From Pseudomonadota bacterium (GTDB lineage Bacteria; Myxococcota_A; UBA9042): a DNA stretch of 64,000 nt. Below are positions 25,317 through 54,292 of this stretch, piece after piece. The notes under the pieces are model-generated. The model had not been told where the DNA came from. It was given only the letters and a program-made list of their open reading frames with translations, and did not search any database. The position numbers and the translations under genes were made by a program. The stretch spans positions 11,034 to 75,033 of the forward strand of contig JBEARB010000253.1 of the NCBI GenBank assembly GCA_041163625.1, read 5' to 3'. Numbering within the stretch: the first letter of the stretch is position 1; every line of letters begins with the position of its first letter.

Positions 25317-28300
25317 ATGGCAGTCCTCGAGCGCATTCGCACCCTGTTCGGCACCATGCCACGCGGCCTCGGAGCCCTGGCGCTGGTGACCGCGATCGGC
25401 CTGTCGGCCTGTGCAGGCGAGTCCGGGAGCGACGCTGCAAGCGACGGCACCTGTGAGCCCGGCACGAAGGATTGCCTCTGCGCGACGGGCGCGGCGTGCG
25501 GCCCGGGCTTGTCCTGCGTCTCGGGGTCGTGCAAGGCCGGCGAGCAGGGTGCCCTGGGCATGGCCTGCTTCGCCAACATGACCTGCAATCCCGACGAGGA
25601 AGGCCGCGCGATGCTCTGCGTGGGCGGCGTCTGCCAGAAGGCGAGCTGCACGCAGGGCAGCGAGGGTTGCGGCTGTCTCGCCGGCGCGACCTGCGCCGCG
25701 GGGCTGACCTGCGACACCAGCACCGGTGCGGCGCTCTGCCAGAAGGCGGCCTGCGCGGACAACGTCGGCACGCTCGGCTGCGCCTGCGACGCGGACTACG
25801 GCTGCGCGGCGGGCCCGGGCGGTGCGGCGCTGGCGTGTGACGGCAAGCTGTGCATCTCGGCGATCTGCGCGCCGGGCACCGAGAACTGCTTCTGCGGCGA
25901 GAAGGCCACCTGCGCCTCGGGCCTGAACTGCGACGCCGGCACCTTCCGCTGTGTGAAGCCGAGCGGCTGCACCCAGGGCGAGTCGGGCTGTGCCTGCAAG
26001 GGCGACGGCAGCTGCATCGGCGACAAGCTGGTCTGCAACAGCAACGTCTGCGTGGTCGAGAACTGCCCGGCCGGCGAGATCGGCTGCACCTGCAAGGGCG
26101 ACGGCAGCTGCGCCGTCGGCGGCGACGCCCTGCTCGTCTGTCAGTCGGGCAAGTGCCTGCCCAAGGCGGGCTGCGCCGAGGGCACCCCCGGCTGCGCCTG
26201 CACCGCCACCGGCGGCTGCCAGGGTGACGGCTTCATCTGCGACAGCGGCACCAACACCTGCAAGGCGGTCTCCTGTGCCGCCGGCGCGCTGAACTGCGGC
26301 TGCAAGGCCGGCGCCACCTGCGACGCGGGCCTGGTCTGCGCGAACGGTCAGATCTGCGTCGACAACAAGGGCTTCCCCGGCGGTGCCTGCCTCGACGGCG
26401 ATCTCTGCAACGCCGGTGCGAAGTGCGACGGCGGCAAGTGCGCGACCTGCGCGCTCGGCAGCGAGGGCTGCGCCTGCTTCACCGGCGGCGGCTGCTTCGC
26501 CCCGCTGACCTGCCACCTCGGCAGCTGCGTCGCGCCCGGCAACTCGAGCACGACCGTGCCCGCTTCGCTCGACCCGCCGAAGGACGCGCAGTGCTGGACG
26601 CCCTGCAACCAGGGTGTGACCAAGCCCGACGGCACCTTCGTCGCGTGCGGCGCCGACGGCCTACTCCCGGGCTGCGTCGACGACCTGACCTGCGTCAAGG
26701 GCAGCTGCGTGAAGAAGGGCGACACGCCCGGCAAGTGCGAGACCGACCTGGACTGCGCCGAGCACCAGACCTGCTACCTCGCTGACGGCCACTGCTACTC
26801 GAACTGCAACGTCGACATGGACTGCGGCGACGGCGCGAGTTGCTACCGCCACGTCTGCCGCAAGACCTGCGACACCAAGGCGGGCTGCGACAAGGGTCAG
26901 TTCTGCAAGACGATCGACGGAGAGAACGGCTTCTGCATGCCGCTCGCGCCGCCGACCAAGTGCGAGGGTCCGCAGTGCGGTCAGAAGGCCGTCCTCGGTA
27001 GCTTCTCGCTGCAGGAGGACCAACTGAGCCTCTCGGACGCCAACGCGACCGGCCAGATCGTGGTCGACGTCGACAGCGCCTCGGAGACCTCGCTCAAGGT
27101 CCGCAAGGTCCGTCACTCGATGGTCGGCCAGGGCGGCGAAGAGGTGACCTGCGTCGCCGGCAGCAACAACTGCCCCTGCCAGCCCGGTGACGGCAAGGTC
27201 GTGCTCGCCGGTGTCACCTACTACTGCGACACCGCCAAGACCCCGCCGCTGCACTGGCTGAAGATTGGCACCAGCGACAAGCCCCTCGAGAAGGTGCAGT
27301 CGATCGACGTGAAGGTCGGCGCCGGCAAGACCAGCTTCACCCTGCTGCTGAGCACCGAGGGCGCCTCGCCCGCGCCGGCGTGGCAGGGCGTGGTCGAGAT
27401 CAGCCACCCGAACTACGGCGTCGGCGAGGTCTTCCTCTCCTACGCCGTGCGCCCGGACGGCCGCTGGATCGGCACCGCCTACTTCTTCGCCACCTTCGAG
27501 GACGAGGGCTTGGACAAGTGGCTGCTCAACCCGCAGGACTTCAACCTCGTCAAGAACGCGTTCGTGCAGCAGTGGCAGGTCTTCCGCAACCAGCCGATGG
27601 CCAACTACGAGATGATCAACGCGATGATGACCAGCGTCATCGACGAGACCTGGCAGTGGGAGAAGGTCCGCAAGGATTGCAAGAGCTTCGGCGAGAACGC
27701 CGCGTGCATCCCCTACGCCCCGCAGCAGCCCGGCTCGATCGGCGCCACCAGCGGCCTGTACAAGGTCAGCTCGGACTCGCGCACCATCCGGATGCCGAGC
27801 GGCGTCACAGAGCTGCCGCTCTCGTTCAACCTGAAGTCGACCGCCGACCCGACCCTGCTCACCGGCCGCATCACCACGGCCGACAGCTTGCAATACGGCG
27901 GCAACCCGTCGATTGGCGGCATCAAGCTCAAGCAGGATCCCGCCAAGGCCTGCACCGGCGGGCTGTGCGTCATCGGCGTGAGCGACATGAGCATCGACAT
28001 GGCGATCGGTGGTCGCTACGTCTCGAACAGCTCGGACACCACCTGCCAGGACATGCCGGCCGGTGCGTACGGCCACGTCGCGCTGCCGTGGTTGGTGCCG
28101 GGCTTCTTGGTCGGCACCGAGACCGACAACAAGACCAACACCGTCTACCGCTACGAGTGCCGTTCGAAGAAGGTGCCCTTCGGCGACGATCCGGCGCAGA
28201 TGGTCGCGAACATGACCTCGGCGGCCAGCAACCCGATCGCCGACGGCAAGCCGCGCAGCCGCACGCTGACGCTGCTCGACGGCGCGCTCATCAACCAAAC

Positions 28301-36869: not shown

Positions 36870-38446
36870 CGATCTTCCCCCAAGAGCTCGTCGAAGGCGA
36901 CGAGCCAGCGCAGCGAAGCATCGCTGGGGACGCCGGCCGCGTCCATCGCGGCGGCGGCGATCTCGGCGTCGCGGCGGTCGGCGGCGTCGGGCAGCTCGGC
37001 GTCGCCGAGGCCACCGAGGCGCTCGGCGCTGGCTTCGAGGAAGAGCGGCTCGAGATCGGCGGGAAGATGCCGCACGACCGCGCGGACGACCGCCGCCTCG
37101 AGCAGTCGCCGCTCGCGCCGCAGCGCCGCCACCTCGCGGCGGTAGCGCAGGTACGCGACCATCGAGAGCAGCAGCTCGCGCGCGTCGGCGTAGCGCTCCA
37201 CCAAACGGAGCGCCGCCCAGCCCGAGAGCGGCAGCAAGGGCAGCAGCGCCGCGACTTGCCAGAGCGCGAGCGTGAGCGGTGGCTGCGTACCGTACTGCCA
37301 CAGCAGGACGGCGCAGGCGACCCACGTCGCCACGACCAGCGCGAGCCCGACCAGCAGCTTGGTCGTCGCGACCACGTCGCGCCGTGGCGTGGCGAGCCGG
37401 CCGACCAGACCGGCCAGCAGCGCAGCGGGCAAGTGCAGCAGCAGCCCCGGCAACGCGAGCGGCAGCCAGAGCAGCGCGCGGCCCGAGCGTCGCCAGAAGC
37501 GGGCGAGCACCGTCCGGAAGCGCCAATCTTGGGCCAGATCGCGCTCACCGAGGTCGATCGCGTCGAGGCGCTCGCGGAACTGCCGCACCGCATCGAAGAG
37601 CGCGCGCACGTCCGGGCGGTCGCGCACCTGTTCGTAGCCAGCGGCGAAGCGGCGGGCGAGCTCGACGCGCGCTTCGAGCGAGAGGCCCGGTGGTTGGTAG
37701 AGCCGTCGGACGGTCTCGAGCACGCGGAGGGTGTCCCAATCCTCTGCGTTGATGGTCAGCGCGCGCAGGGCGAGGTCGATCTCCTCGGTGAGCGCGCGGC
37801 CGGCGGCCTTGGCGTCGGCGGCGAAGGCTTCGCGGCGGATATCGTCGATCCAGATCGGTGGCCCGTAGCGGACCAGGACGTTGCTTCGAAAGCGCTTGGG
37901 CGCCGAGTAGTTCAGGCCAACAGGTACGATCGGCAACGGCGCGCTTCCGATGGGCGTGGCGAGCGCGAGACGGGCGGCCCCGGTGCGCAGCGGCTGCAGC
38001 TGGGCTTCGTCGTGCGAGAGCCCCTCGGGGAAGATGCCGATGGCACCACCGGCAGCGAGCAGACCGTGCATCGCGGTGAAGGCGGCGCTGTTGTCGACGC
38101 GGACGGGGGCGCTGATGGCGGCGGCGTCGACCTTGCCGTCGGCGGCGATGCGGCGGCGAATCGGGACGGCGCCGACGCCGCGCAAGATCGGCCGCAATCC
38201 GGGATTGTCGAACAGGTCTTCTTTGGCGGCGAAGAGCACCGGGCGCTCGGTCGCAACGATGAGGACCGCCGGATCGAGCAACGAGTTCGGATGGTTGCCG
38301 ACCAGAAGCAGGGGTCCGTCGGGCGGCAAGAGCTCCTCACCGGTGGTGCGTACGCGACGGAAGAAGACGCCGAGTAGCGCGCGGATCAGGGTCCGCAGCG
38401 GACCGTACAGAGGCGCTGCGGGTCGGTGGTCGGGCTGCGCGGGCAT
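36866..38446 (-). CDS. PlsC-family lysophospholipid/glycerol-3-phosphate acyltransferase with a long C-terminal extension.
   Basis: Internal ATG 38446. GNHPNSLLDP (HX4D motif), FPEGLSHD and VPVGLNY acyltransferase blocks. The extra ~250 aa at the C-terminus include two hydrophobic segments. Confidence 0.7.
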   Translation of the reverse strand: MPAQPDHRPAAPLYGPLRTLIRALLGVFFRRVRTTGEELLPPDGPLLLVGNHPNSLLDPAVLIVATERPVLFAAKEDLFDNPGLRPILRGVGAVPIRRRIAADGKVDAAAISAPVRVDNSAAFTAMHGLLAAGGAIGIFPEGLSHDEAQLQPLRTGAARLALATPIGSAPLPIVPVGLNYSAPKRFRSNVLVRYGPPIWIDDIRREAFAADAKAAGRALTEEIDLALRALTINAEDWDTLRVLETVRRLYQPPGLSLEARVELARRFAAGYEQVRDRPDVRALFDAVRQFRERLDAIDLGERDLAQDWRFRTVLARFWRRSGRALLWLPLALPGLLLHLPAALLAGLVGRLATPRRDVVATTKLLVGLALVVATWVACAVLLWQYGTQPPLTLALWQVAALLPLLPLSGWAALRLVERYADARELLLSMVAYLRYRREVAALRRERRLLEAAVVRAVVRHLPADLEPLFLEASAERLGGLGDAELPDAADRRDAEIAAAAMDAAGVPSDASLRWLVAFDELLGEDR

Positions 38447-38656: not shown

Positions 38657-40102
38657 ATGACGCGCACCCCCACCCTGCTGATCGCCTTGCTGGCGGCACT
38701 GGCCCTCACGGCCTGCGGGACCGAAACCACCAACTCCGGCGGCACGACCGACACCGGCGGCAGCGACACGGCCGGCGGCAGCGACACCACCGGCGGCGAC
38801 AGCACCGGCGGCGTGGACAGCACCGGCGACGACAGCACCGGTGGCGACACCACGACGGGCGGCGATGCCTCCGCCGACACGACGCCGCCGGCCAAGCACC
38901 AGAGTTGCCCCGCGCTGGGCGATTGCGTCATCGCCGCGTGCGCGCCGAGCGGCTTCGCCGACGGCTGCTCGACGCAGTGCATCGCGGATTCGTCGCAGGG
39001 CGCGCTCAAGCTCGGCCTGCCGCTGCTCAAGTGCGTGCAGGACAAGTGTCTGCCGGCGTGCAAGGACTCGACCGAGGCGAGCTGTCTCAACGACTGCATG
39101 GGCGAGCAGTGCATCAACGATCTGATCATGTGCATCAGCGACCAGCCCGAGCCGACCGGCACCAAGACGTGCATGGAGGCCGCCGGCTGCTTCGACGATT
39201 GCGAGACCAGCGGCAAGCCGCCGTTCGCGTGCATGGCGGGCTGCGTCGCGCTGACCGACAAGCCGGGCGTCGAGGCGCTCAAGGCCATCGGTCAGTGCAT
39301 GGCGCAGGCCGCGAAGGACGGCAAGGACGGCGAGGAGGCCTGTGCGTCCGAGATGATCGGCTGCGTGACCAGCGGCAAGGCCGGCGACGGCAAGTGCATC
39401 GACTTCTTCGGCTGCCAGAAGGCGTGCGAGGCCGGCGACGAGGGCGAGGACGCGTGCCTGTTCGAGTGCCTGCCGAAGCTGACCAAGGAGGCCCAAGGCC
39501 AGCTGATGGCTGCGGCGTCGTGCTTCGAGGATGCCAGCGAGGACGACACCTGCCCCGCGAAGATGCTGGCGTGCATCGACCCGAGCGGCACCGAGACCTG
39601 CGTGTCGTCGTTCGGCTGCATCGCCGCGTGCACCGAGAAGGCCGGCGAGCTCGAAGATCCGGCACCGTGCATCTTCGGCTGCATCGCCAACACCAGCAAG
39701 ACCGAGGCGCCGCTCGTGGTGTCGTTGATGCAGGCCTGCAACGACGACAACGGGGGCGAGCAGCTGCCGGGCGACGCGACGCCGACCGAGGACGAGGGCC
39801 CGAGCCAGGAGTGCCTCGGTGCCGTGTTCGCCTGCGCCGCTCCGAAGGAGACCGGCGATAGCTGCGACAAGATCATGGTCTGCACGCAGGCGTGCGAGGA
39901 GGGTGACGGCGACGGGCTGGGCTGCGGCCTGAACTGCGCCGCCAAGGGCGCCAAGGCCGAGGTCGAGAAGCTGGTCAAGCTGCTCGGCTGCCAGCAGGAC
40001 TGCAACAAGACCTGCAAGGACAGCACCGACGAGCAGTGCAACGGCAAGTGCATCCTGCAGAACTGCCCGACCGAGGCGGCTGCCTGCGTGCCGAAGGGCT
40101 AG
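38657..40102 (+). CDS. Cys-rich secreted lipoprotein (481 aa), unknown function.
   Basis: GGAGG RBS. MTRTPTLLIALLAALALTACG has a lipobox. Then a T/G/D/S linker and about 60 Cys residues in irregular CxxxC / GCxxxC patterns. Confidence 0.65.
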   Translation: MTRTPTLLIALLAALALTACGTETTNSGGTTDTGGSDTAGGSDTTGGDSTGGVDSTGDDSTGGDTTTGGDASADTTPPAKHQSCPALGDCVIAACAPSGFADGCSTQCIADSSQGALKLGLPLLKCVQDKCLPACKDSTEASCLNDCMGEQCINDLIMCISDQPEPTGTKTCMEAAGCFDDCETSGKPPFACMAGCVALTDKPGVEALKAIGQCMAQAAKDGKDGEEACASEMIGCVTSGKAGDGKCIDFFGCQKACEAGDEGEDACLFECLPKLTKEAQGQLMAAASCFEDASEDDTCPAKMLACIDPSGTETCVSSFGCIAACTEKAGELEDPAPCIFGCIANTSKTEAPLVVSLMQACNDDNGGEQLPGDATPTEDEGPSQECLGAVFACAAPKETGDSCDKIMVCTQACEEGDGDGLGCGLNCAAKGAKAEVEKLVKLLGCQQDCNKTCKDSTDEQCNGKCILQNCPTEAAACVPKG

Positions 40103-40292: not shown

Positions 40293-41288
40293 ATGACGGC
40301 CAACGAGGCAACGAGACCGGACCGGCTGCGCCGCGCCGTGGTGCGCACGCTGGCCTACGCCGATCTCTTCGATTTTCCGCTGCGGACCGAGGAGGTCTGG
40401 CGCCAGCTCCTGCTCGAGCCGGCGACGCGGTCGGAGATCGAGTCGCTCCTCTCGGACGCGGATGACGATCCCTTCCTCGCGAGCCGCGTTCGGCAGGTCG
40501 GCGAGTTCTGGACCTTGGCCGACCGCCCCGACCACAGCGCTCAGCGTGGACAGCGCACCGAAGCAGCCGAGCGTCTGATCGCCGAGCACCGCCGCGTGCT
40601 GCAGCTCGCCGCAGCCCTGCCCTGGGTGCGGATGATCGCGTTTTCGGGCGGCACCAGTCGCCGCAACTCGATCCACGACGACGACCTCGACCTCTTCATC
40701 GTCACCGAGCAGGGTCGCACCTGGTCGGTCTTCCTCGGCTTGGTCCTGCTCGCGCGCGCGGCCGGCTGCCGCGACGTGCTCTGCGCCAACTACCTCGTCG
40801 ACCGCGTACACATCGTCGTGCCCGATGGCGGCGACCTCTTCACCGGCCAAGAGCTGCTCGGACTCGAGCCGATCGCGGGTGAGCGGCAGCTACGGCGGAT
40901 GGCGACCGTCAACGATTGGGCACACAAACTGCTGCCCAACGCCAGGCTGCGACCGCGCAACCCGTTGCTCGGTGCGTTCGGCGACGAGGACGGCACGGCG
41001 GCGACCGCCAAGCGTTGGATCGAACGCGCCCTCTTGCCCGCCGGTTGGGCGGTCGAGCGCGTGGCGCGACGCGGCTTGGGCTGGCACCTCGGGCGCAAGA
41101 AGCAAGCGAGCAGCGGACGCGGCGGCGATATGTTGCTGCGGCCCGGCGTGCTGAAGCTGCACCAGAGCGACAACCGAGCTGCCGTGGTGCGCCGCTTCCG
41201 CGAGCGCCTCGACGCGCTCGGCGTGGCGGGCGAAGACCTGGATCGGCTGCTCGAGCCGCGGCGCCGCCGCGCCGGAGGCACCGCATGA
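40293..41288 (+). CDS. Hypothetical protein, possibly a nucleotidyltransferase fold; first gene of the radical SAM operon.
   Basis: Internal ATG 40293 of track ORF 40179..41288. FSGGTSRRNSIHDDDLDLFIV resembles the hG[GS]x9-13DxD motif of Pol-beta-type nucleotidyltransferases. The stop overlaps the next start (ATGA). Confidence 0.45.
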   Translation: MTANEATRPDRLRRAVVRTLAYADLFDFPLRTEEVWRQLLLEPATRSEIESLLSDADDDPFLASRVRQVGEFWTLADRPDHSAQRGQRTEAAERLIAEHRRVLQLAAALPWVRMIAFSGGTSRRNSIHDDDLDLFIVTEQGRTWSVFLGLVLLARAAGCRDVLCANYLVDRVHIVVPDGGDLFTGQELLGLEPIAGERQLRRMATVNDWAHKLLPNARLRPRNPLLGAFGDEDGTAATAKRWIERALLPAGWAVERVARRGLGWHLGRKKQASSGRGGDMLLRPGVLKLHQSDNRAAVVRRFRERLDALGVAGEDLDRLLEPRRRRAGGTA

Positions 41289-42865
41289 CGGCGCCGGCTT
41301 CCTGCGAGCTGCTGTTCGCGCACGCGTATTTCCTGCGCTTCGACCGCAAGCTCTACGAGGCGATGCAGCCCTATCCGCCGATGGGGACGATCGTGGCGGC
41401 GGCGGTGGCGCGGCAAGCCGGCCGAGAGGTCGCGCTCTTCGACGCGATGCTGGCGCAGGACGAGCGCGCCTTCGAGGCGGCGTTGGTCGCGCACAAGCCG
41501 CGGCTGGTCGTGCTCTACGAGGACAACTTCAACTACCTCAGCAAGATGTGCCTGCTGCGGATGCGCGAGGCGGCGCTGGTGATGCTGGCGGCGGCGCGGC
41601 GGCACGGCGTCCGCGCGTGGGTCTGCGGCTCGGACGCGTCGGACCATCCAGGGCTCTACCTCGACGCGGGCGCCGAGCTGGTGCTGGTCGGCGAGGGCGA
41701 CGACACGTTGGCGGACCTGCTCGGGCGAGGCTGGGATCGCGAGCCGCTGGACGTCGACGCGGCGGCGGGCATCGCGGGGCTGGCGCTGCGGCGCGGCGGC
41801 GAGCTGGTGCGGACGCCGCGGCGGGCGACGCTCAAGGCGATCGACACGTTGCCGTGGCCGGCGTGGGATCTGTGCGATCTCGAGCAGTATCGGCGCATCT
41901 GGCGGGAGCGGCACGGGCGCTTCTCGCTGAACTTGGTCAGCACGCGCGGCTGCCCCTACCACTGCAATTGGTGCGCGAAGCCGATCTGGGGCCAACGCTA
42001 CGCGATGCACAGCCCCGAGCACGCGGCGACGATGGCGACGCATCTGCGCGAGAGCTTCGGCGCCGAGCACCTCTGGTGGATGGACGATATCTTCGGCTTG
42101 AAAAAGGGCTGGGTCGGCGCGTTCGGCGAGGCGATGCGGGCGCGCGGCGGCACGCTGCCGTTCAAGGCGCTCTCGCGAGCGGACCTGTTGGTGCGCGAGG
42201 GTGAGGCCGAGGCGTTCGCCGCCGCCGGCGCCGAGATCATCTGGATGGGCGCGGAGTCGGGCAGCCAGGCGGTGCTCGACGCGATGGACAAGGGCACCAA
42301 GGTCGGCGAGATCGAGGACGCCACCGCGCGGTTGCACGCTGCCGGCGTCGAGGTCGCCTACTTCTTGCAGTTCGGCTACCCCGGCGAGACGCGCGCCGAC
42401 ATCGAGGCCACCCGCGCGATGCTGCGTCGCTGCAAGCCCGACGATATCGGCATCTCGGTGAGCTACCCGCTGCCCGGGACCCGCTTTTTCGACCGCGTCG
42501 CGGACCAGCTCGGCGCCAAGCAGAACTGGGTCGACTCCTCCGACCTGGACATGCTCTACGAGGGGCCCTTCCCGACGGCCTTCTATCGGCACCTGCACCG
42601 CGTCGTGCACATGGATTACAAGTCGCGGCGGACGATGTGGCGCTTGCGCGGGCAGACGCCGCGGACGCATCGCCCGAGCGCGCGCGAGCTGGCGCGCGCC
42701 GCCATCGACCGCGCGATGCTGCCGCTGGCCGAGGCGCAGCTCGACCGGCTCGCGGCGCAGCCGCACGAGGGTGTGCGGCCGACCGGCGCGACGATGGACT
42801 TCGACGCCGCCGCAACGCCGAGCGCGCCCGACGGCAGCGCGCAGGCGCCGGGAGCTTCGGCATGA
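41285..42865 (+). CDS. B12-binding domain radical SAM protein.
   Basis: Internal ATG 41285 (MTAPASCELLFAHAYFL…). The N-terminal cobalamin-binding-like Rossmann domain (LVVLYEDNF…WVCGSDAS) precedes CPYHCNWC (CxxxCxxC) and a TIM-barrel radical SAM core (IWMGAESGSQ). Confidence 0.8.
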   Translation: MTAPASCELLFAHAYFLRFDRKLYEAMQPYPPMGTIVAAAVARQAGREVALFDAMLAQDERAFEAALVAHKPRLVVLYEDNFNYLSKMCLLRMREAALVMLAAARRHGVRAWVCGSDASDHPGLYLDAGAELVLVGEGDDTLADLLGRGWDREPLDVDAAAGIAGLALRRGGELVRTPRRATLKAIDTLPWPAWDLCDLEQYRRIWRERHGRFSLNLVSTRGCPYHCNWCAKPIWGQRYAMHSPEHAATMATHLRESFGAEHLWWMDDIFGLKKGWVGAFGEAMRARGGTLPFKALSRADLLVREGEAEAFAAAGAEIIWMGAESGSQAVLDAMDKGTKVGEIEDATARLHAAGVEVAYFLQFGYPGETRADIEATRAMLRRCKPDDIGISVSYPLPGTRFFDRVADQLGAKQNWVDSSDLDMLYEGPFPTAFYRHLHRVVHMDYKSRRTMWRLRGQTPRTHRPSARELARAAIDRAMLPLAEAQLDRLAAQPHEGVRPTGATMDFDAAATPSAPDGSAQAPGASA

Positions 42866-44262
42866 TCGATCTGCTGCTGGCGCACGGCTGGTTCTTGCAC
42901 GAGGACCCGGCCGAGCAGAAGGCGATGCGGCCCTACCCCCCGCTCGGGATGCTTTACGTCGGCGCCTACCTGCGTCAGCAAGGCTTCCGCGTCGCGGCGT
43001 GGGACGGGACCTTCCGCACCCGCGGCGAATTCCTCGGCGCGGTGCTCGCCGCCCGCCCGGCCGTCGTCGGCCTGTACGCCAATATGGTCACGCGGCGGCA
43101 CATCCTGAAGATGGCGGCGGCGGCCAAGCGCGCCGGCTGCCGCGTCGTGGTCGGCGGACCCGATCCCGCCAACTACGCCGACCGCTACCTCGCCCACGGC
43201 ATCGACGCGGTCGTCGTCGGCGAGGGCGAGCTGACGCTGACCGAGCTGATGCCGCTGCTGCTCGACGGCAAGCGCGATTTCTCCCGTATTCCGGGCGTGG
43301 TGTGGCAAGACAGCGACGGCGAAGTCGTCCGCAACATGCCGCGGGCGCAGGTCAAAGACCTCGACAGCCTGCCGAACCCGGCGCGCGACCTGATCGACAT
43401 CGGCGCCTACCTCGACTGTTGGAAGCGCCACCACGGCAGCAGCAGCGTGAACCTGATCACTGCGCGCGGCTGCCCGTTCCACTGCAATTGGTGCAGCCAC
43501 GCGGTCTACGGGCACAGCCACCGCCGCCGGACGCCCGAGCACGTCGCCGACGAGGTGCAAGGGCTGCTCGCGCGCTACCGGCCCGACCAGCTCTGGTACG
43601 CGGACGACGTGTTCACCATCCACAAGAAGTGGCTGCTCAAATACGCCGACGAGCTCGAGCGCCGTGGCCTGCGCGTGCCTTTCGAGACCATCACCCGCGA
43701 GGACCGCCTCGACGACGAGATCATCGCCACCCTCGCCCGCATGGGCGCGCGGCGGATCTGGGTCGGCGCCGAGTCGGGTAGTCAGCGCATCCTCGACGCG
43801 ATGCAGCGCAGCACCGACGCCGAGCGCGTGGTCGAGATGGTGCGCAAGCTCGAGGAAGCCGGCATCGAGACGGGCATGTTCCTGATGCTCGGCTACGAGG
43901 GCGAGGAGCAGGCCGATATCGAGGCCAGCATCGACATGGTCGCGCGCGCCCGCCCCGGCGTCTTCCTGACCACCGTCAGCTACCCCATCGCCGGCACGCC
44001 CTACGCCGCCAAGGTCGAGGACCGCACCTTCGAGGCCCGCGCCTGGGCCGACGGCAGCGACCGCGACCGCCACATCCGCGGCCGGCACTCGATGCGCTGG
44101 TTCGAAGCCGCCAACCGCTGGATGGTGCACGAGGTCGCACGCCGCCAAGCCGTCGCGGTCGGCGTCGGCAGCGGCCGGGACGCCGCAAAGATCGGCTGGC
44201 ACGCCGCACAGAGCGCCCTCGGGCGGTTGGGGATGCGGCGGTTCGACGCGGAGCGGACGTAG
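42862..44262 (+). CDS. B12-binding domain radical SAM protein (paralog of the upstream gene).
   Basis: ATGA overlap start 42862 (MIDLLLAHGWFLHED…). CPFHCNWC; RIWVGAESGSQRILDAM. The overall collinearity with the previous protein is clear. Confidence 0.8.
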   Translation: MIDLLLAHGWFLHEDPAEQKAMRPYPPLGMLYVGAYLRQQGFRVAAWDGTFRTRGEFLGAVLAARPAVVGLYANMVTRRHILKMAAAAKRAGCRVVVGGPDPANYADRYLAHGIDAVVVGEGELTLTELMPLLLDGKRDFSRIPGVVWQDSDGEVVRNMPRAQVKDLDSLPNPARDLIDIGAYLDCWKRHHGSSSVNLITARGCPFHCNWCSHAVYGHSHRRRTPEHVADEVQGLLARYRPDQLWYADDVFTIHKKWLLKYADELERRGLRVPFETITREDRLDDEIIATLARMGARRIWVGAESGSQRILDAMQRSTDAERVVEMVRKLEEAGIETGMFLMLGYEGEEQADIEASIDMVARARPGVFLTTVSYPIAGTPYAAKVEDRTFEARAWADGSDRDRHIRGRHSMRWFEAANRWMVHEVARRQAVAVGVGSGRDAAKIGWHAAQSALGRLGMRRFDAERT

Positions 44263-44278
44263 GGATTGGAGGTAGACT

Positions 44279-44578
44279 GTGGATGACCTGGACGACGATC
44301 CACAGCTTCCAACGCGTCGGCCATGGTGGTCCTGGTCCATTTGGCGCTTCCTGCTCTATGCAGTCACGATCTTGCTCTCCCTGCCGAGCTCGTTGGCCGC
44401 CAACTATGCCGTCGAAGAAGTAGCCGTGGACTTTCAAGTTGGCTGGCTTCTGGATGCATTGGACATGGATCAGTGCCGTGTTCCTCCACCGGGCTGCACG
44501 GTTGACGCCCATCCGAACGATCTCTGCATTCGGCGAGCGTGCGAGCGGTGGTACGGTGCGGACGGCGAGAGCGAGTAG
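44279..44578 (+). CDS. Small (99 aa) low-GC ORF with a hydrophobic segment and a Cys-containing C-terminus, 17 nt downstream of the rSAM pair.
   Basis: GGAGG sits 6 nt before a GTG start. …WWSWSIWRFLLYAVTILLSLP…CRVPPPGCTVDAHPNDLCIRRACERWYGADGESE. GC is clearly below the surrounding sequence. Confidence 0.3.
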   Translation: MDDLDDDPQLPTRRPWWSWSIWRFLLYAVTILLSLPSSLAANYAVEEVAVDFQVGWLLDALDMDQCRVPPPGCTVDAHPNDLCIRRACERWYGADGESE

Positions 44579-44993
44579 CTGCGGCCCGGTGGAGACGCAG
44601 GTTTCAGGGACTCATGCCTCGTGCATTGCGACTGGATGAGGAACCACGAACCAACTCGAGGCGTTCGAGCGACCGACGACGTCGACGATGGCGGGCCACT
44701 CGAGACTGAAGTCTCGAGCTGAATTGAGCGCCCGGCCTTCGCCGGGCTTGCGGGTCAGACATCCCGGCAAGTCCTCTGGCAGCGGCACACTCTGTCCCCT
44801 CCCGCCGCCGTCCAGGCCGAGCCGAAGGCGAAGTGCCCAGGCGGACCGACGCCACCCGCCCATCCAACGCGACCCAAGCCCGGGGGGAGCCCGAGGGGGG
44901 AGCGCAAGCGGCCCCCCCTCGGCCACGGGGGAGGTGCAAGGAGGGGGCAGTCCCCTCCTTGATCCGCCGTCTGCCGAGCAGACTCCACCTCGA

Positions 44994-48700: not shown

Positions 48701-49948
48701 ATGAGACGCGGACTCGCGTTGATGCGAATCGCCCTGCGGAACGTGCTGCGCAACCGCCGCCGCACGCTGATCACCCTGGCGGCGCTGCTGGTCGGCGTCA
48801 GCGTGATGGTCAGCATCCGCGGTGTGCTGAACGGCCTGCAGGGGGCGCTGGTCGACAACGTCGTGCAGGGCCAGACCGGCGCGCTGCAGGTGCACCGCAA
48901 GGGCTACCGCCAGAACGTGCTCGCCTCGCCGCTGACGCTGGACTTCGAGAGCAAGGCGATCGCGGACAAGGTCGCCGCCGTGCCCGGTGTGAGCGCGGTC
49001 GCCCCGCGCATCGCCTTCGGCGGGATGCTCGCGGTCGGCGACGAGACGCTCTTCCTCTTCAACCAGGCCATCGACCCGGCAGCGGAGCTGAAGGTCTGCC
49101 CCAAGCGGGCGGCGGCGATGCACGACGCGGGCAAGTTCTTCGGCGCCGGCGGCGTCGAGCAGGTCGCGGACGCCATCCTCGTCACCGCCGAGCTCGAGAA
49201 GGCGTTGCGCCCGGCGATGGCCAAGACCCAGGACCCCGCCGCCCTGCTCGCACCCGACCGGGACGGCGCGCTGTCTGGCGAAAACGCGACGATCGTGGGC
49301 AAATTGGACCTCTCTGGCCCGGGTGACGGCAAGCTCGCGATGGTCCGCCTCGACGTCGCGCAGCGGCTGCTGAAGATGGAGGGGCGCGTCACCGAGCTCG
49401 CCGTCGCGGTCGACGACCTCGCCCACCTCCAGCAGACCAAGGTGGCGCTGCAGCAGGCGCTCGGCGCCGAGTACGAGGTCCACACCTGGGAGGAGATCGC
49501 CTCCTTCGTGGTCGATATCCGCAACATGCAGAACGCGCTGCTGAGCCTGGTCGCCGGCGTGTTCATGCTGCTGATGCTGCTCGGCGTGGCCAACACGATG
49601 CTGATGAGCGTGCTCGACCGGACGCGCGAGATCGGCACGATGATGGCGGTCGGCGTGCGCCGGCAGACCATCGTGACGCTCTTCCTGCTCGAAGCCGGCT
49701 TCATCGGCGCGCTCGGCGGCAGCCTCGGCGGCGCGATGGGCTGGAGCCTCTCGAGCTGGCTCTCGGCGAAGGGCATCTCGATTCAGCTGCCGACCAGCGA
49801 CGTGCCCTACGTGATCCATCCGCACGTGCCCTTGCACTACCTCGCCGCGGTGGTGGCCATCGCCGCCGCCGGCGCCGTGCTCTTCGCGCTCTACCCCGCT
49901 TGGCGGGCGAGCCGGCTGCGCCCCGCCCTTGCGCTGGCCGGCGGCTAG
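48701..49948 (+). CDS. FtsX-like ABC transporter permease (LolC/E / MacB-type).
   Basis: GGAGGAG RBS. MRRGLALMRIALRNVLRNRRRTLITLAALLVGVSVMV is the canonical start. Four transmembrane segments flank a large periplasmic domain. NTMLMSVLDRTREIGTMMAVG. Confidence 0.8.
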   Translation: MRRGLALMRIALRNVLRNRRRTLITLAALLVGVSVMVSIRGVLNGLQGALVDNVVQGQTGALQVHRKGYRQNVLASPLTLDFESKAIADKVAAVPGVSAVAPRIAFGGMLAVGDETLFLFNQAIDPAAELKVCPKRAAAMHDAGKFFGAGGVEQVADAILVTAELEKALRPAMAKTQDPAALLAPDRDGALSGENATIVGKLDLSGPGDGKLAMVRLDVAQRLLKMEGRVTELAVAVDDLAHLQQTKVALQQALGAEYEVHTWEEIASFVVDIRNMQNALLSLVAGVFMLLMLLGVANTMLMSVLDRTREIGTMMAVGVRRQTIVTLFLLEAGFIGALGGSLGGAMGWSLSSWLSAKGISIQLPTSDVPYVIHPHVPLHYLAAVVAIAAAGAVLFALYPAWRASRLRPALALAGG

Positions 49949-49957
49949 GAGGATTCG

Positions 49958-51184
49958 ATGCTCCGCTACCTCCGCCTCGCCGTCCGCAACGTGCTGCGCA
50001 GCCGCGCGCGCTCGGTGCTGACCATCGGGGCCATCGGCTTCGGCGTGTGGATGACCCTGGTGCTGGGTTCGTTCATCGCCGGCCTGCAGAACGCGCTGAT
50101 CGACGATACGGTCAAGGGTCGCGTCGGTGCGATTCAGATCCATCGCAAGGGCTACGACGACCTGCTCGGCGACGCCCCGCTCGACCTCGACCTGCCGCAA
50201 GACGCCCCGTGGCTCGAGAAGGTCCGCAGGACCCCGGGCGTGGTCGCGGTGGCGCCGCGGATCCGTTTCACCGGCATCCTCACCAACGGCAGCCAGAGCG
50301 CGAACTACGTCGGCGTCGGCGTCGATCCGAAGCTCGACCGCCTCGCGCTGCCGCTCTTCGCCGCCAGCGTGCAGGGCCACATCGTCGGCGACGACCCCGA
50401 GCAGACCGCCGCCGTCGTGGTCGGCGACGAGATGGCCGCCGCGCTCGCCGCCGAGCCCGGCGCCACGCTGACGCTGCAGACCGCGACCGCTTCGGGCCAG
50501 CAGAACGCGATGGACGCCGTCGTCGTCGGTCGCCGCAGCGCCGGCACCCCCTTCGACAACAAGCGTCTGGTCTTCGTGCCGCTCGCGTGGACGCAAGAGC
50601 TGCTCGACATGAAGGGCCGGGTCACCGAGTTCGTCGTCGCCGTGGAAGACCGCGAACAGGTCGGCGCCATCGCGGCGCAGCTGCAGCGCGAGCTCGGCCC
50701 CGACCTGGTCGTCGAGCCTTGGCAGGCGCTGGCCTCGCAGGTCGCCGACGTCGTGCGCGTGCAGCGCCTGGTCCTCGGCGCCATCGGCGCGGTCTTCTTG
50801 ATCATCGCGATCATCGGCGTCGCCAACACGATGCTGATGAGCGTGCTCGAGCGGACGCGCGAGATCGGCACGATGATGGCGCTCGGCGTCCGTCGCGGCA
50901 CCATCACCGTGCTCTTCCTGCTCGAGGGCATGACGCTCGCGGTCTTCGGTGGCGGCCTCGGCGTCGGCCTCGCCATCCTGCTCGCCAAGATCGTCGGCGG
51001 CCTCGGCGGCGTGAGTGGCTCGCCGCCCGGCACCGTCGCCAAGTACGTGATCATCCCCGACCTGCCGCTCTGGCTGATCGCGCCGACGGTGGCGCTGACG
51101 CTGCTCGGCACCCTCGCCGCCGCCGGCTGGCCCGCCTGGCGCGCCTCACGCCTGCGCCCGGTCGAGGCCCTGCGCGCGACCTGA
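49958..51184 (+). CDS. FtsX-like ABC transporter permease (second paralog).
   Basis: MLRYLRLAVRNVLRSRARSVLTIGAIGFGVWM…NTMLMSVLERTREIGTMMALG. Confidence 0.8.
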   Translation: MLRYLRLAVRNVLRSRARSVLTIGAIGFGVWMTLVLGSFIAGLQNALIDDTVKGRVGAIQIHRKGYDDLLGDAPLDLDLPQDAPWLEKVRRTPGVVAVAPRIRFTGILTNGSQSANYVGVGVDPKLDRLALPLFAASVQGHIVGDDPEQTAAVVVGDEMAAALAAEPGATLTLQTATASGQQNAMDAVVVGRRSAGTPFDNKRLVFVPLAWTQELLDMKGRVTEFVVAVEDREQVGAIAAQLQRELGPDLVVEPWQALASQVADVVRVQRLVLGAIGAVFLIIAIIGVANTMLMSVLERTREIGTMMALGVRRGTITVLFLLEGMTLAVFGGGLGVGLAILLAKIVGGLGGVSGSPPGTVAKYVIIPDLPLWLIAPTVALTLLGTLAAAGWPAWRASRLRPVEALRAT

Positions 51185-51221
51185 ACGATCGAACGGGCGG
51201 CCCCGCCCGAAGGAGGAACCG

Positions 51222-52016
51222 ATGCGACGATTCGTCCCCGCCACCCTGAGTGCCCTGGCGCTCGCGCTGGTCGCCGCCGCGGCGACGGCGGCCCCGCCCA
51301 AGGCGCCTGCGCCACAGGCTCCCGCGGCGCCCGCCAAGGCAGACGCCGCGCCCGTCACCGCCGAGGCGCTGCTCGCCGCCTACGACGCCGTGATGGGCCC
51401 GCCCAACTTCGAGGCACAGATCCGCATGGTCGCCTACCGCGACGACGGCACCAACCGCGACTACACGATGAAGGTGCTCAAGAAGGGCGACGAGAAGTTC
51501 CGTATCTGGTTCTCGGCACCCTCGGCGGTGGCGGGCCAGGAGATGTTGCGCGTCGGCGACAACCTCTGGGTCTACATGCCCAACCTCAAACGCGCCGTGC
51601 GCTTGGCGAACCGCGACTCCTTCCAGGGTGGCGACTTCAACAACGCCGACGTCCTGCGCGTGAACTACCAGAAGGACTACAGCGCCCGCATCGACGACGG
51701 CTGCGGCAGCGAGCAGGCGTATTGCGTCGAGCTCACCGCCAAGACCAAGAACGCTTCGTACGACCGCGTGCAGCTCTGGTTGCGGAAATCCGACCGGCAG
51801 CCCGTCGCCGGCGCCTACTACGGCGGCTCGGGCAAGCTGCTGCGCCGCGCCACCTTCCGCGCGCACAAATCGTACGCCGGGCTGGTGCGCCCCGGCGAAA
51901 TCGTGATGCGCAACATGCTCAACAAGAAGCGCTACTCGATCATGGCCTGGGAGTCGATCACCACGCGGGTCGACCCGTCGGCGTCGCGCTTCGTGCTCGA
52001 CGATATGGGGAAATAG
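51222..52016 (+). CDS. Outer-membrane lipoprotein-sorting (LolA-like) periplasmic protein.
   Basis: Signal peptide MRRFVPATLSALALALVAAAATA. …YTMKVLKKGDEKFRIWFSAPSAVAGQEMLRVGDNLWVYMPNLKR is typical of LolA-like / DUF4367 proteins encoded next to FtsX permeases. Confidence 0.65.
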   Translation: MRRFVPATLSALALALVAAAATAAPPKAPAPQAPAAPAKADAAPVTAEALLAAYDAVMGPPNFEAQIRMVAYRDDGTNRDYTMKVLKKGDEKFRIWFSAPSAVAGQEMLRVGDNLWVYMPNLKRAVRLANRDSFQGGDFNNADVLRVNYQKDYSARIDDGCGSEQAYCVELTAKTKNASYDRVQLWLRKSDRQPVAGAYYGGSGKLLRRATFRAHKSYAGLVRPGEIVMRNMLNKKRYSIMAWESITTRVDPSASRFVLDDMGK

Positions 52017-53566
52017 TGCGTTGGGCGCTCGTGCTGCTGCTCGTCTCCGGATCGGCGTGGGCGCAGCCCGCGGACGATTGGGAGCCGCCGCCGCTGGCGC
52101 CGCGTACGTCGGTGCCGACGCCGGGCGCGGCCACGCCGACCGCGACCGACGCGGCACCCGCCCTGCTCGGCGGCGGCGACCGCAGCCTGTTGCAGAAGAA
52201 GGTCGTCGGCTGGGTCGACAGCCGCACCACCGGCGGCTACGCGAGCGTCGCGCACCTGCTGCCCGCCGACGATACGCCGCACCTCTCGAACCTGACCGAG
52301 GCGAACCTGCTGCTGACGCTCGATTGGGGCGATGTCGCCCGCGTCGTCGGCGACCTCTCCTGGGTCTGGGGCCGCGGCGCCTATTTCTACGCCGACGACG
52401 GCAGCGCCGGCCGCCTGCGCATCGCCTCGCACGACGTGCCGGCGGCGCAGTCGGGCACGTTCGTCAGTGAGCTCTACGGGCTGTTCCGCTTCGGCGAGCA
52501 TTGGAACCTGACGCTCGGCAAGAAGCGCGTGGTCTGGGGGACGGGCCTGGCGTGGAACCCGACCGACCTGCTCAACCCGCCCAAAGACCCCACCGATCCG
52601 ACCCAACAGCGCACCGGCTCGTGGCTCGCGCGCGTCGAGGGCCAATACGAGCGCGTCTCGTTCAGCCTGGTCGGCGCGGCCAAGGCGACCGCGCAGCTTG
52701 GCGGCATGCCGAGCCGCTGGCTCTGGAACCCGGCCGACGACACACCCGAATACGTCGTCGGCGCGCGCGTCTACGCCCTGGTCGCCGACACCGACCTCTC
52801 GCTCTTCGGCTTTTTCGGCAACCGCTTCAACGACGTCTTCGAGGACAAGCCGCGCCTGGGCGCCGCCTTCTCGCGCGTGGTCGGCGACAGCTTCGAAGTG
52901 CACGGCGAGGCGTTGCTGCAGCGCGGCTCCTCGCGCCTGTACCTCGACCGCAGCTGCACCGCCGACCTCGCCGCCGCCGCGGGCTGCGTCGCCGCCGGCA
53001 AGGACGTCGCCGCCCACAGCCGGCTCGACGACGAACGGCTGCGCGCCAAGACCTTGGTCGGCTTGCGCTACCAATTCGGCGCGGCGGCGAGCGTCTCGGT
53101 CGAATACCTCTACAACCAAGAGGGCTACGACGCCGGCGAATTCTCGGCCTTCGCGGGCGCGATGGCGCTGCGAAAGTCGGCGGCGCAGGCGGGGCTGACG
53201 CTGCCGGCCGGGGCGCTGCCGGGGATGCCGGGGGCGACCAGCACCGACCAAGGCGGCACGCCGCAGAAGTTCGCCTTCGAGCCGCTGCGCCGGCACTACC
53301 TCTTCGTGACCTACCTGCACCCGCAGCTCGCCGACGACTTCACCATCACCACCGTGCTGCTGCTCGGCCTCGAAGACGGCTCGGGCCAGCTCGCGCCGCA
53401 GCTGACGTGGTCGGCGCGGCAATGGCTCAACCTCTCGGTCGGCGCGTTCGTGACGCTGCCCGGCCTACCCGGCCTCGGCGTGACGACGCGCTACGGCGAG
53501 GTCCGGGAATTCCAGCTTCAACCCAGCGTGTGGCGGGCGTTCTTCGCCGCGCGCGCGTTCTTCTAG
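52016..53566 (+). CDS. Secreted protein, probable outer-membrane beta-barrel.
   Basis: The GTG start overlaps the upstream stop. Signal peptide VRWALVLLLVSGSAWAQ. Alternating amphipathic beta-strand-like segments, with a C-terminal aromatic residue (…AARAFF). Confidence 0.55.
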   Translation: MRWALVLLLVSGSAWAQPADDWEPPPLAPRTSVPTPGAATPTATDAAPALLGGGDRSLLQKKVVGWVDSRTTGGYASVAHLLPADDTPHLSNLTEANLLLTLDWGDVARVVGDLSWVWGRGAYFYADDGSAGRLRIASHDVPAAQSGTFVSELYGLFRFGEHWNLTLGKKRVVWGTGLAWNPTDLLNPPKDPTDPTQQRTGSWLARVEGQYERVSFSLVGAAKATAQLGGMPSRWLWNPADDTPEYVVGARVYALVADTDLSLFGFFGNRFNDVFEDKPRLGAAFSRVVGDSFEVHGEALLQRGSSRLYLDRSCTADLAAAAGCVAAGKDVAAHSRLDDERLRAKTLVGLRYQFGAAASVSVEYLYNQEGYDAGEFSAFAGAMALRKSAAQAGLTLPAGALPGMPGATSTDQGGTPQKFAFEPLRRHYLFVTYLHPQLADDFTITTVLLLGLEDGSGQLAPQLTWSARQWLNLSVGAFVTLPGLPGLGVTTRYGEVREFQLQPSVWRAFFAARAFF

Positions 53567-53575
53567 GAGTCCGCC

Positions 53576-54292
53576 ATGGCCCTCGTCACCCTGCAAGGCA
53601 TCCAGAAGTCCTACGAGCTCGGCAAGACCACCGTCACCGCGCTGCGCGGCGTCGACCTCGAGGTGCAAGCCGGCGAGTTCACCGTGGTGATGGGCCCCTC
53701 GGGCTCGGGCAAGACCACGCTGCTGAACATCATCGGCTGCCTCGACCGGCCGACCGGCGGCAGCTACGTGCTCGACGGCGAGGCCATCGGCGACCGCGAC
53801 TTCAACGACCTGGCCGAGATCCGCAACCGCAAGATCGGCTTCATCTTCCAGAACTTCAACCTGATCCCGGTGCTCTCGGTGCGCGAGAACATCGAATTCC
53901 CGTGCGTGATCCGCGGCGAGGGCGGCGCCGAGCTGAAGGCGCGCGTCGAGGCGATCGCCCGCGACGTCGGGCTCACCGACTTCCTGCACCACAAGCCCGA
54001 CGAGCTCAGCGGCGGTCAGCGGCAGCGCGTCGCCATCGCCCGCGCCCTGGTCACCGGTCCGCAGCTCGTACTCGCGGACGAGCCGACCGCCAACCTCGAC
54101 AGCAAGACCAGCGACCAGATCATCGACCTGATGTTGGCGCTGAACCGCGACAAGGGCGTAACCTTCCTCTTTTCCACCCACGATCCGCGCGTGATGGAGC
54201 ACGCTCGCCGGGTGGTCTCGATTCACGACGGCGTCATCGTCGACGGGACCGCAGCGGCGGCCGCCGACGTCGCCAGGATGCACGCCCGATGA
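53576..54292 (+). CDS. ABC transporter ATP-binding protein (LolD/MacB-type).
   Basis: GPSGSGKTTLLN (Walker A), LSGGQRQRVAIARAL (ABC signature), LVLADEPT (Walker B). Confidence 0.9.
   Translation: MALVTLQGIQKSYELGKTTVTALRGVDLEVQAGEFTVVMGPSGSGKTTLLNIIGCLDRPTGGSYVLDGEAIGDRDFNDLAEIRNRKIGFIFQNFNLIPVLSVRENIEFPCVIRGEGGAELKARVEAIARDVGLTDFLHHKPDELSGGQRQRVAIARALVTGPQLVLADEPTANLDSKTSDQIIDLMLALNRDKGVTFLFSTHDPRVMEHARRVVSIHDGVIVDGTAAAAADVARMHAR

Follow-up and report, generated by a model that had tools for sequence, protein, structure and literature searches.

Class B radical SAM enzymes perform some of the hardest alkylations in biology, and among their many members only a few have a known substrate. The closest structurally solved relatives of the paired enzymes considered here are TsrM, MgmA/QCMT (PDB 9ccb, identified as QCMT in a review), OxsB, CysS and TokK, which share with them an N-terminal B12-binding Rossmann domain and a CxxxCxxC radical SAM core but only 15-21% sequence identity (best sequence E-values, 1e-13 to 2e-16). 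Nothing in the genes around our cassette corresponds to the substrates of these enzymes (tryptophan, MCR glutamine, a nucleotide, carrier-linked aromatics and a carbapenem), and none of the companion genes of the BchE, HpnJ, HpnR, ladderane, ApyD or PhpK pathways is present here.

A nucleotidyltransferase and a B12-radical-SAM enzyme also work together in fosfomycin biosynthesis, where Fom1 carries a cytidylyltransferase domain and the methylase Fom3 acts on a nucleotide-tagged substrate. It is this pairing, taken here as a lead, that our cassette has in common with Fom1/Fom3, but the transferase of Fom1 probably has a different, non-Pol-beta nucleotidyltransferase fold, the cassette has no phosphonate genes, and relatives of its first gene, g1, are widespread without any radical SAM enzyme. 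The minimal nucleotidyltransferases MNT/MntA, together with the aminoglycoside adenylyltransferases AadA/ANT(9), resemble the g1 product in having a G[GS]...DxD motif and a nucleotidyltransferase core followed by a helical domain; they are its top Foldseek and HMM matches, although weak ones (E = 0.04-0.5). What sets g1 apart from them is a winged-helix-like domain added at the N-terminus, the conserved motif C164-x-N166 and the lack of a Pfam family, as well as a family-wide link to GT4 and Wzy_C genes, whereas toxin-antitoxin or resistance links of the MNT/MntA or AadA/ANT(9) type were not seen. Finally, Wzx/Wzy polysaccharide loci and Arn-type polyprenyl-phosphate-sugar modification, which combines a glycosyltransferase and modifying enzymes with a GT-C transferase, come into view through related genomes. 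There, GT4, GT2, PMT_2/GT87, Wzy_C and Wzx genes run co-linear with the cassette, whereas such glycan genes are absent from our window (the whole 64-kb stretch of DNA analysed). We know of no described Wzx/Wzy or Arn-type locus that contains B12-radical-SAM enzymes; searches of a literature library found none, and they returned no description of the cassette.

The cassette itself comprises three plus-strand genes, g1-g2-g3 (40293..44262), linked by two ATGA overlaps and surrounded as follows:

35626..36213, minus strand: GNAT, neighbour
36210..36869, minus strand: alpha/beta hydrolase, neighbour
36866..38446, minus strand: PlsC-type acyltransferase, neighbour
about 38657..40102, plus strand: Cys-rich lipoprotein (g0) with an LTAC lipobox and 51 Cys
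40293..41288, plus strand: g1, 331 aa, predicted Pol-beta-type nucleotidyltransferase-fold protein
41285..41288, plus strand: ATGA overlap of g1 stop and g2 start, from frame translation
41285..42865, plus strand: g2, 526 aa, predicted class B (B12-binding) radical SAM protein with CxxxCxxC and a conserved C-terminal tail
42862..42865, plus strand: ATGA overlap of g2 stop and g3 start, from frame translation
42862..44262, plus strand: g3, 466 aa, predicted class B radical SAM protein with CxxxCxxC, paralog of g2
44279..44578: 99-aa ORF with several Cys, 17 bp downstream of g3

Both junctions read ATGA in the translated frames, as an earlier sequence-only reading of this DNA had proposed, and the g1/g2 overlap suggests translational coupling. 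The same three frames came out of a GC3 frame analysis and of a gene caller based on codon usage, and an identical public contig, on which genes were called independently, also yields products of 331, 526 and 466 aa. We take the three genes to be a single translationally coupled operon. A promoter and terminator scan of positions 39900-45100 and an Rfam scan of the whole window returned no match. The neighbours named in that reading (GNAT, alpha/beta hydrolase, PlsC-type acyltransferase and Cys-rich lipoprotein) do exist. A functional link to g0 or to the PlsC/hydrolase/GNAT operon was considered and rejected, both being kept only in the closest relatives (L001-L003 or L002), and we treat both as neighbours, not as parts of the cassette.

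Both g2 and g3 match the Pfam families B12-binding (PF02310; 34.1 and 61.7 bits, respectively, against a gathering cut-off of 32.1) and Radical_SAM (PF04055; 50.8 and 73.9 bits, both above the gathering score). Each carries a CxxxCxxC motif, CPYHCNWC at residue 223 of g2 (C223/C227/C230) and CPFHCNWC at residue 204 of g3 (C204/C208/C211), and the two are 37% identical over 441 aa (E = 2e-88), which upholds their earlier description as a paralogous B12-radical-SAM pair. The best Foldseek matches of the g3 AF2 model (pLDDT 92.1) are TsrM, MgmA/QCMT, OxsB, CysS and TokK (E = 1e-22 to 1e-18; TM 0.65-0.75), a class B fold comparison that was made with the g3 model and to which g2 is linked by its identity to g3. 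By sequence, both proteins belong to the class B radical SAM enzymes, with cobalamin and [4Fe-4S] as predicted cofactors.

The two genes have separate orthologs, 50-59% identical, in Myxococcota, Chloroflexota, Acidobacteriota and other phyla. In Myxococcota and Chloroflexota loci, identities are 52-58% for g2, 55-59% for g3 and 31-47% for g1, as against 35-40% between the paralogs; g2 and g3 are paralogs of ancient origin, and each has a separate set of orthologs in several phyla. Hundreds of genomes hold g2 orthologs at 50-89% identity; there are at least 575 genome matches, and Chloroflexota account for 64 of the best 80 genome loci. The closest relative of our locus, L002, is 81-96% identical.

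Neither protein reaches the cut-off of the NCBIfam equivalogs for BchE, HpnR, HpnJ, ladderane, ApyD, PhpK or QCMT. The best curated families (BchE, HpnJ, HpnR, ladderane [TIGR04072], ApyD and PhpK) score 54-129 bits against cut-offs of 360-750, with BchE the top match of g2 (95.9 bits; cut-off, 481) and ApyD that of g3 (128.8 bits; cut-off, 750), scores so far below the cut-offs that we place g2 and g3 outside those families. Membership of a characterised clade without partner genes, which the sequence-only reading had set against itself, is contradicted by these scores and by two co-evolving partners, g1 and a class I methyltransferase. We also considered an anti-phage defence system and rejected it; the PADLOC scan gave one match, a generic radical SAM at 28.8 bits in g3.

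The ApyD match of g3 and the Cys-containing ORF that lies just past it speak for RiPP tailoring, in which the radical SAM enzymes would C-methylate a ribosomal peptide, for example the 99-aa product; B12-radical-SAM C-methyltransferases do occur in RiPP pathways. The ApyD score nevertheless falls far short of its cut-off, and the ORF has a GC3 of 0.69, against about 0.9 for real genes in the region, has no Pfam match, is not called as a gene on the identical public contig, has no homologs beyond that contig and is missing from L002 and every other locus compared. No conserved small ORF accompanies the cassette in about 75 loci, where the sole clusters are alternative frames of neighbouring genes, and a leader peptidase, RRE or exporter is absent both among the conserved neighbours and beside the operon in the window. 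The small Cys peptide of the sequence-only reading is thus present as an ORF but looks non-coding and is not conserved, and the RiPP context built on it fell away. We consider RiPP tailoring already largely refuted and very improbable.

The first gene matched no family in Pfam or NCBIfam. Its signature, S118-G119-G120 ... D131-L-D133, has the form hG[GS] x9-13 DxD by which Pol-beta nucleotidyltransferases are recognised, and among 146 diverse family members D133 is kept in all, D131 in 144 and G119 in 132. D170, a candidate third catalytic carboxylate on an adjacent strand, is invariant in 24 close homologs; in the wider family an acid stands at position 170 in some members (D, 52) and at 171 in others (E, 76; D, 23). 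The protein is organised as follows:

aa 8-75: N-terminal winged-helix-like domain
aa 82-200: nucleotidyltransferase core, with G119, N125, D131, D133, C164 and N166
after the core: C-terminal helical domain

The structure model is confident, and the assignment draws on the motif, the model and weak sequence and fold matches to minimal nucleotidyltransferases (Foldseek E about 0.1; HMM E = 0.04-0.5). On this evidence the g1 product is nucleotidyltransferase-like, as first suggested, with a probable Pol-beta fold and a conserved G...DxD signature at the active site. We dismissed the idea that g1 is a rare family: a word-indexed search returned 27 homologs, whereas an exhaustive profile search returned 6416 representatives, and the apparent rarity was an artefact of the word index. 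All 10 multi-domain family members tested are fused to GT4, one of them also to a class I methyltransferase, and distant g1 relatives that lack the radical SAM genes adjoin Wzy_C, GT4 and Bac_transf.

Among 42 related loci that have 5 kb or more of sequence on each side, a methyltransferase occurs in 32, g1 in 28 (directly upstream of g2 in 25), g3 in 23, any glycosyltransferase or Wzy in 25 and Wzy_C in 13. Contiguous g1-g2-g3-MTase-PMT_2-GT4 operons are found in relatives, and many loci join g2-g3-MTase directly to PMT_2 and GT4, some of them without g1. One Chloroflexota cluster reads GT4-Wzy_C-GT4-g1-g2-g3-MTase-MTase, and another reads ...g3-MTase-MTase-rSAM-GT87-PMT-GT4-Wzy_C-GT2. Wzx (Polysacc_synt) is present in 20 loci, an MGAT2-like glycosyltransferase in 8 and GT2 in 7, and when the 142 ORFs flanking the cassette most closely were assigned to Pfam families, 41 were class I methyltransferases, 8 Wzy_C, 5 GT4, 5 GT2 and 3 Wzx. 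The partners that recur across phyla are class I SAM methyltransferases, which usually come next after the cassette, GT4/GT2/GT-C (PMT_2/GT87), Wzy_C and Wzx; GT4 genes are common, so background could explain part of the association. No glycosyltransferase, Wzx/Wzy or SAM methyltransferase genes lie within the window, which, set beside the many related loci where glycosyltransferases occur with Wzy_C, a Wzx flippase or both, suggests that it carries the tailoring core only. The best explanation is a widespread and so far uncharacterised tailoring cassette with g1-g2-g3 as its conserved core. The earlier remark that the substrate is not obvious stands, and we tentatively favour, at somewhat less than even confidence, a radical, probably C-methylating, modification of a glycoconjugate building block.

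The main rival is a lipid target, with the radical SAM enzymes methylating or cross-linking the hydrocarbon of a membrane lipid, glycolipid or polyprenyl carrier and the glycosyltransferases adding only the head group. In the Myxococcales loci L004/L005, L015 and L016, the gene immediately upstream, in the same orientation, is Lipid_desat (PF10520, the family of TMEM189), an HMG-CoA reductase-polyprenyl synthase fusion is found near the cassette in L006/L007 and L010, and the PlsC-type acyltransferase/hydrolase/GNAT operon adjoins it in the window and L002; each of these lipid genes, however, is limited to one narrow clade, and none is kept across phyla. The ladderane-lipid radical SAM family is among the better NCBIfam matches of g2 and g3, but at 84-113 bits against a cut-off of 360 it is far from a hit, as is HpnR at 54-104 bits against 650. 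Lipoglycans, for example phosphatidylinositol mannosides, are likewise made with GT4 plus GT87/PMT_2. The cross-phylum partners are glycan genes and methyltransferases. The lipid context of the sequence-only reading survives as a minority signal, in the three Myxococcales loci with Lipid_desat upstream, and gives way elsewhere to these partners; we judge a lipid target unlikely.

A pathway to a cofactor or soluble small molecule (a methylated quinone, a tetrapyrrole or a metabolite handled through a nucleotide, as in Fom1/Fom3) would make the glycan genes incidental. In the window, L002, L013 and L014, the triad or a lone g2 does stand without glycan genes, and L013 (77%) and L014 (69%), the nearest g2 relatives after L002, have no g1, g3 or glycan genes nearby. 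The companion methyltransferase finds its best NCBIfam matches among CpaM, MenG/UbiE and BchM types and the top radical SAM match is BchE, but all of these scores are far below cut-off. The fosfomycin precedent for pairing a nucleotidyltransferase with a B12-radical-SAM enzyme has to be weighed against the physical fusion of the g1 domain to GT4 enzymes and the contiguity of g2-g3-MTase with PMT_2 and GT4, g1-less loci included. No further genes for making a cofactor or an antibiotic are kept near the cassette, and we hold a soluble product to be distinctly unlikely, more so than a lipid.

Returning to the glycoconjugate reading, we envisage that g2 and g3 would each cleave SAM reductively to a 5'-deoxyadenosyl radical, which would take a hydrogen from an unactivated carbon in a building block derived from a sugar and linked to a nucleotide or polyprenyl phosphate. 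Methylcobalamin would then supply a methyl group, a step proposed on the basis of enzyme class; other reactions are known in class B too, among them cyclisation (BchE) and ring contraction (OxsB, HpnJ). The two paralogs may serve two positions or two successive steps, and g1, using an NTP or NDP-X, may carry out nucleotidylation or phospho-transfer onto the same glycoconjugate together with GT4. The product would be destined for a cell-envelope glycan or glycolipid, and in this genome the locus holds only the three-gene core, with any glycosyltransferase or methyltransferase partners encoded elsewhere. It is possible, though rather doubtful, that g1-g2-g3, with the methyltransferase, amounts to an undescribed pathway in which B12-radical-SAM enzymes add a C-methyl or longer alkyl group to a nucleotide- or polyprenyl-phosphate-linked sugar that GT4/GT-C enzymes place on the envelope. 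In that event, g1 would define a new nucleotidyltransferase-fold domain family partnering GT4, and Chloroflexota would carry the pathway widely, with further occurrences in Myxococcota and Acidobacteriota.

Whatever the target, g2 and g3 represent two well-conserved orthologous groups outside the curated families, found in hundreds of species, mostly uncultured Chloroflexota, with a fixed partner domain absent from Pfam. If they act on an envelope glycoconjugate, this would be a new kind of sugar modification, one that would matter for the structure of the envelope, for phage and immune recognition and possibly for biomarkers; it would also be, to our knowledge, the first case of B12-radical-SAM chemistry in the assembly of bacterial surface glycans. 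If they act on a lipid, the result would be relevant to where the methyl-branched bacterial lipids of sediments come from. In either case, the cassette is a well-defined candidate for reconstitution.

Two further genes recur beside the cassette: 12 loci have one for a PNP_UDP_1 phosphorylase-superfamily protein, and 13 have one for a deaminase-type amidohydrolase. We considered the amidohydrolase as a substitute for g1 in g1-less loci and set this aside; its sub-threshold NCBIfam matches are nucleobase/5'-deoxyadenosine deaminase-type hydrolases, and a role in by-product salvage fits better. Together, the two proteins could dispose of SAM by-products, consistent with a high turnover of radical SAM and methylation chemistry.

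The cassette at the centre of this analysis is a coupled operon of three genes, g1, g2 and g3, in which an NTase-fold partner bearing a conserved catalytic signature (g1) precedes two class B (cobalamin-dependent) radical SAM (rSAM) paralogs (g2 and g3). Raw ORF lists are noisy here because the window has a G+C content of ~70%, and gene frames were chosen by their GC3 profile and with a gene caller based on codon usage, as follows:

40293..41288, + strand: g1, NTase-like protein, 331 aa
41285..42865, + strand: g2, B12-binding rSAM enzyme, 526 aa
42862..44262, + strand: g3, B12-binding rSAM enzyme, 466 aa

The genes lie on one strand and overlap by ATGA at both junctions, as the sequence-only reading had stated, and gene calls on an identical public contig (Logan SRR35180390) match all three product lengths.

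The same reading had described g2 and g3 as paralogous B12-rSAMs, which we confirm: Pfam B12-binding and Radical_SAM both score above gathering in each protein, the CxxxCxxC motif falls at C223/C227/C230 in g2 and C204/C208/C211 in g3, and the two share 37% identity over 441 residues (E = 2e-88). Their nearest solved structures by sequence are QCMT/MgmA (PDB 9ccb; PMC12931638), AprD4, CysS and TokK (E 1e-13 to 2e-16), and the confident model of g3 (pLDDT 92.1) superposes on TsrM, MgmA, OxsB, CysS and TokK with TM 0.65-0.75, at an identity of just 15-21%. That both proteins belong to the class B superfamily is solid. The top NCBIfam families are BchE, ApyD, the ladderane-lipid rSAM, HpnJ, HpnR, QCMT and PhpK, with scores of 54-129 bits against cut-offs of 360-750 bits; judged by these profiles, g2 and g3 fall outside every curated functional family of NCBIfam.

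Relatives are abundant. More than 6500 match g3 at E <= 1e-30, with ~55%-identical sequences in Chloroflexota, Acidobacteriota and Myxococcota, and scanning genomes with an alignment of g2 orthologs yielded at least 575. The best 80 of these are all 50-77% identical; 64 are from Chloroflexota and the rest from Myxococcales, Acidobacteriota, Rhodothermales, Bacteroidota and one cyanobacterium. BLAST identity is 52-58% between g2 and g2-type proteins, 55-59% between g3 and g3-type proteins and 35-40% between types, so that g2 and g3 define two separate orthologous groups whose duplication is older than phylum divergence, or else the pair was co-transferred. The g1-g2-g3 trio is conserved across phyla. 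Two loci labelled "uncultured Enterobacteriaceae" (L013, with ~73% G+C, and L032, identical at 99-100% to the Myxococcota-type locus L006) look misassigned. A tail in g2 outside the Pfam domains (residues ~455-500, window 42647..42784; consensus ...ARAAxDRAxLPxAERxLDRLAAxPHxGV...) is kept in Myxococcota and Chloroflexota orthologs and may be a docking segment.

For g1, neither Pfam nor NCBIfam gives a match. The protein carries a Pol-beta nucleotidyltransferase signature (S118-G119-G120...D131-x-D133), and its PDB sequence matches are minimal NTases only (1wot, E 0.035; profile against MNT, E 0.17). A confident AlphaFold model built with 24 homologs (pLDDT 88.8, pTM 0.87) predicts an NTase core flanked by a winged-helix-like domain at the N terminus and a helical domain at the C terminus, and its top Foldseek matches, MntA and the aminoglycoside adenylyltransferase AadA, reach an E of only ~0.1. 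The earlier label "NTase-like" is reasonable, with weak statistical support. Across 146 diverse family members, D133 is present in all, D131 in 144, C164 in 143, N125 in 135 and G119 in 132, a sequence pattern that suggests a conserved active site. Searching through a word index recovered no more than 27 homologs, most of them from Myxococcales MAGs; an exhaustive profile search gave 6416 representative clusters, of which 2129 have E <= 1e-30. Many members are ~700 aa long, and all ten multi-domain proteins scanned fuse the g1 domain, in either order, to a GT4 glycosyltransferase, one with a class I methyltransferase in addition. Distant relatives that have no rSAM at all neighbour Wzy_C, GT4, Bac_transf and epimerase genes.

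The wider gene context is illustrated by gene orders and by neighbour counts.

Gene orders at related loci
Myxococcota loci (g1 identity 44-47%): g1-g2-g3-class I MTase-(PMT_2)-GT4; Wzy_C convergent
One Chloroflexota locus, longer version: GT4-Wzy_C-GT4-g1-g2-g3-MTase-MTase; opposite strand: another GT4, MTase, B12-rSAM
Another Chloroflexota locus, longer version: g1-rSAM-g2-rSAM ... g3-MTase-MTase-rSAM-GT87-PMT-GT4-Wzy_C-GT2

Genes near g2, counted in the 42 genome loci that extend 5 kb or more to either side of it
Methyltransferase: 32
g1: 28 (directly upstream of g2 in 25)
Any GT or Wzy_C: 25
g3: 23
Wzy_C: 13
Additional B12-rSAMs: 8-11

When the other neighbours were clustered de novo across the full set of genome loci (L013-L092), which is wider than the 42, further families emerged: Polysacc_synt (Wzx; 20 loci), amidohydrolase (13), PNP_UDP_1 (12), MGAT2-like GT (8) and GT2 (7). 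Among the 142 nearest flanking ORFs of 76 loci, a Pfam census counted 41 class I methyltransferases, eight Wzy_C, six amidohydrolases, five GT4, five GT2 and three Wzx; NCBIfam names none of the cassette's partner proteins. The cassette is recurrently co-linear with SAM methyltransferases and glycan-assembly genes.

We tentatively favor, as a plausible reading, a role in glycoconjugate tailoring, in which g2 and g3 would carry out a radical modification, most likely methylcobalamin-dependent C-methylation, of a sugar-derived intermediate linked to a nucleotide or polyprenyl phosphate; g1 would perform nucleotidylation or phospho-transfer on the same glycoconjugate, and the product would be displayed on the envelope. 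That the enzymes serve a soluble cofactor or metabolite pathway seems distinctly improbable, and a function of another kind takes up the remaining probability.

Two partner families may remove by-products of radical SAM and methylation chemistry (5'-deoxyadenosine and SAH). In loci missing g1 (L038, L040, L041, L059, L064, L069, L073, L075, L078 and L085-L087), an amidohydrolase of the deaminase type lies directly upstream (~1 kb) of the g2 ortholog; it resembles, with scores below threshold, hydrolases of the nucleobase and 5'-deoxyadenosine deaminase type. In 12 other loci, the cassette is followed by a PNP_UDP_1 gene, of the phosphorylase superfamily to which MTA/SAH nucleosidases belong.

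The window copy is a stripped-down version that carries little direct information on substrate. It and its closest relative, L002 (81%, 89% and 96% identical in g1, g2 and g3), have the cassette cut down to three genes, and GT, Wzx/Wzy and SAM methyltransferase genes are absent throughout the 64-kb window. The next-closest g2 genes, at L013 and L014, stand without g1 or g3, showing that cassette components can be dispersed in Myxococcota. The immediate surroundings in the window are:

38657..40102, + strand: Cys-rich lipoprotein g0, MTRTPTLLIALLAALALTAC lipobox, 51 Cys
44263..44993: non-coding gap of 731 bp between g3 and a convergent pseudouridine synthase gene
44891-44922 and 44930-44968: two G/C-rich hairpins just downstream of the pseudouridine synthase gene

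The upstream neighbors named in the sequence-only reading are present, with conservation confined to close relatives. The lipoprotein, with a linker rich in Gly/Asp/Thr, cysteines in repeated CxxC-like modules and no Pfam family, is kept only in L001-L003 (~61% identity), and the divergent PlsC-type acyltransferase/hydrolase/GNAT operon upstream of it is common to L002 only. That g2 and g3 modify the lipid moiety of a carrier or glycolipid is a reading supported by PlsC, polyprenyl synthase and Lipid_desat neighbors, each of them clade-restricted, and we consider it rather unlikely. PF10520 Lipid_desat, the sole recurrent lipid gene adjoining the cassette, immediately precedes g1, in the same orientation, at three Myxococcales loci (L004/L005, 9182-9883 in L004 coordinates; L015; L016).

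Downstream, the first part of the gap has a G+C of 0.61 versus 0.71 for the operon, and the gap gave no Rfam match or terminator call. The 99-aa ORF within it, put forward earlier as a candidate Cys peptide, has a GC3 of 0.69 and no homolog beyond the identical contig. With no conserved precursor, the suggested RiPP tailoring by the rSAM pair is very improbable. At the position of this ORF, L002 carries toxin-antitoxin genes immediately after the cassette (14079-15782), and L012 has a toxin-antitoxin pair inside it (8143-8854), so these positions are variable; the types are PIN/MazE at L012 and, at L002, Zeta_toxin/ParD_like together with a PIN gene next to one of 77 aa that Pfam does not match.

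The enzymes come from superfamilies that are already known. Neither Pfam nor NCBIfam covers the two orthologous groups of rSAMs, the family of the g1 domain or the complete cassette, and our literature search found no description of any of them. We regard the cassette as well suited to reconstitution but not as surprising.

A PADLOC scan gave no support for a defence role. Elsewhere in the window, three very large + strand ORFs with extreme GC3 (up to 0.99), at 18547..22902 (1451 aa), 25317..31763 (2148 aa) and 31843..35550 (1235 aa), probably encode giant proteins, either secreted or on the cell surface, in a genome resembling that of a myxobacterium; Pfam finds nothing in the first two and one DUF4215 repeat in the third. 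An apparent Lol/MacB-type cluster at 48719..54292 (+) comprises two FtsX/MacB_PCD permeases, a LolA_like protein, a protein of 516 aa for which Pfam gives no match, and an ABC ATPase. From 56996 to 64000, where a Fic/DOC-family gene (58074..59318) accompanies several ORFs without Pfam matches, G+C falls to ~0.62, reaching 0.60 at the window end, and this segment may be acquired DNA.
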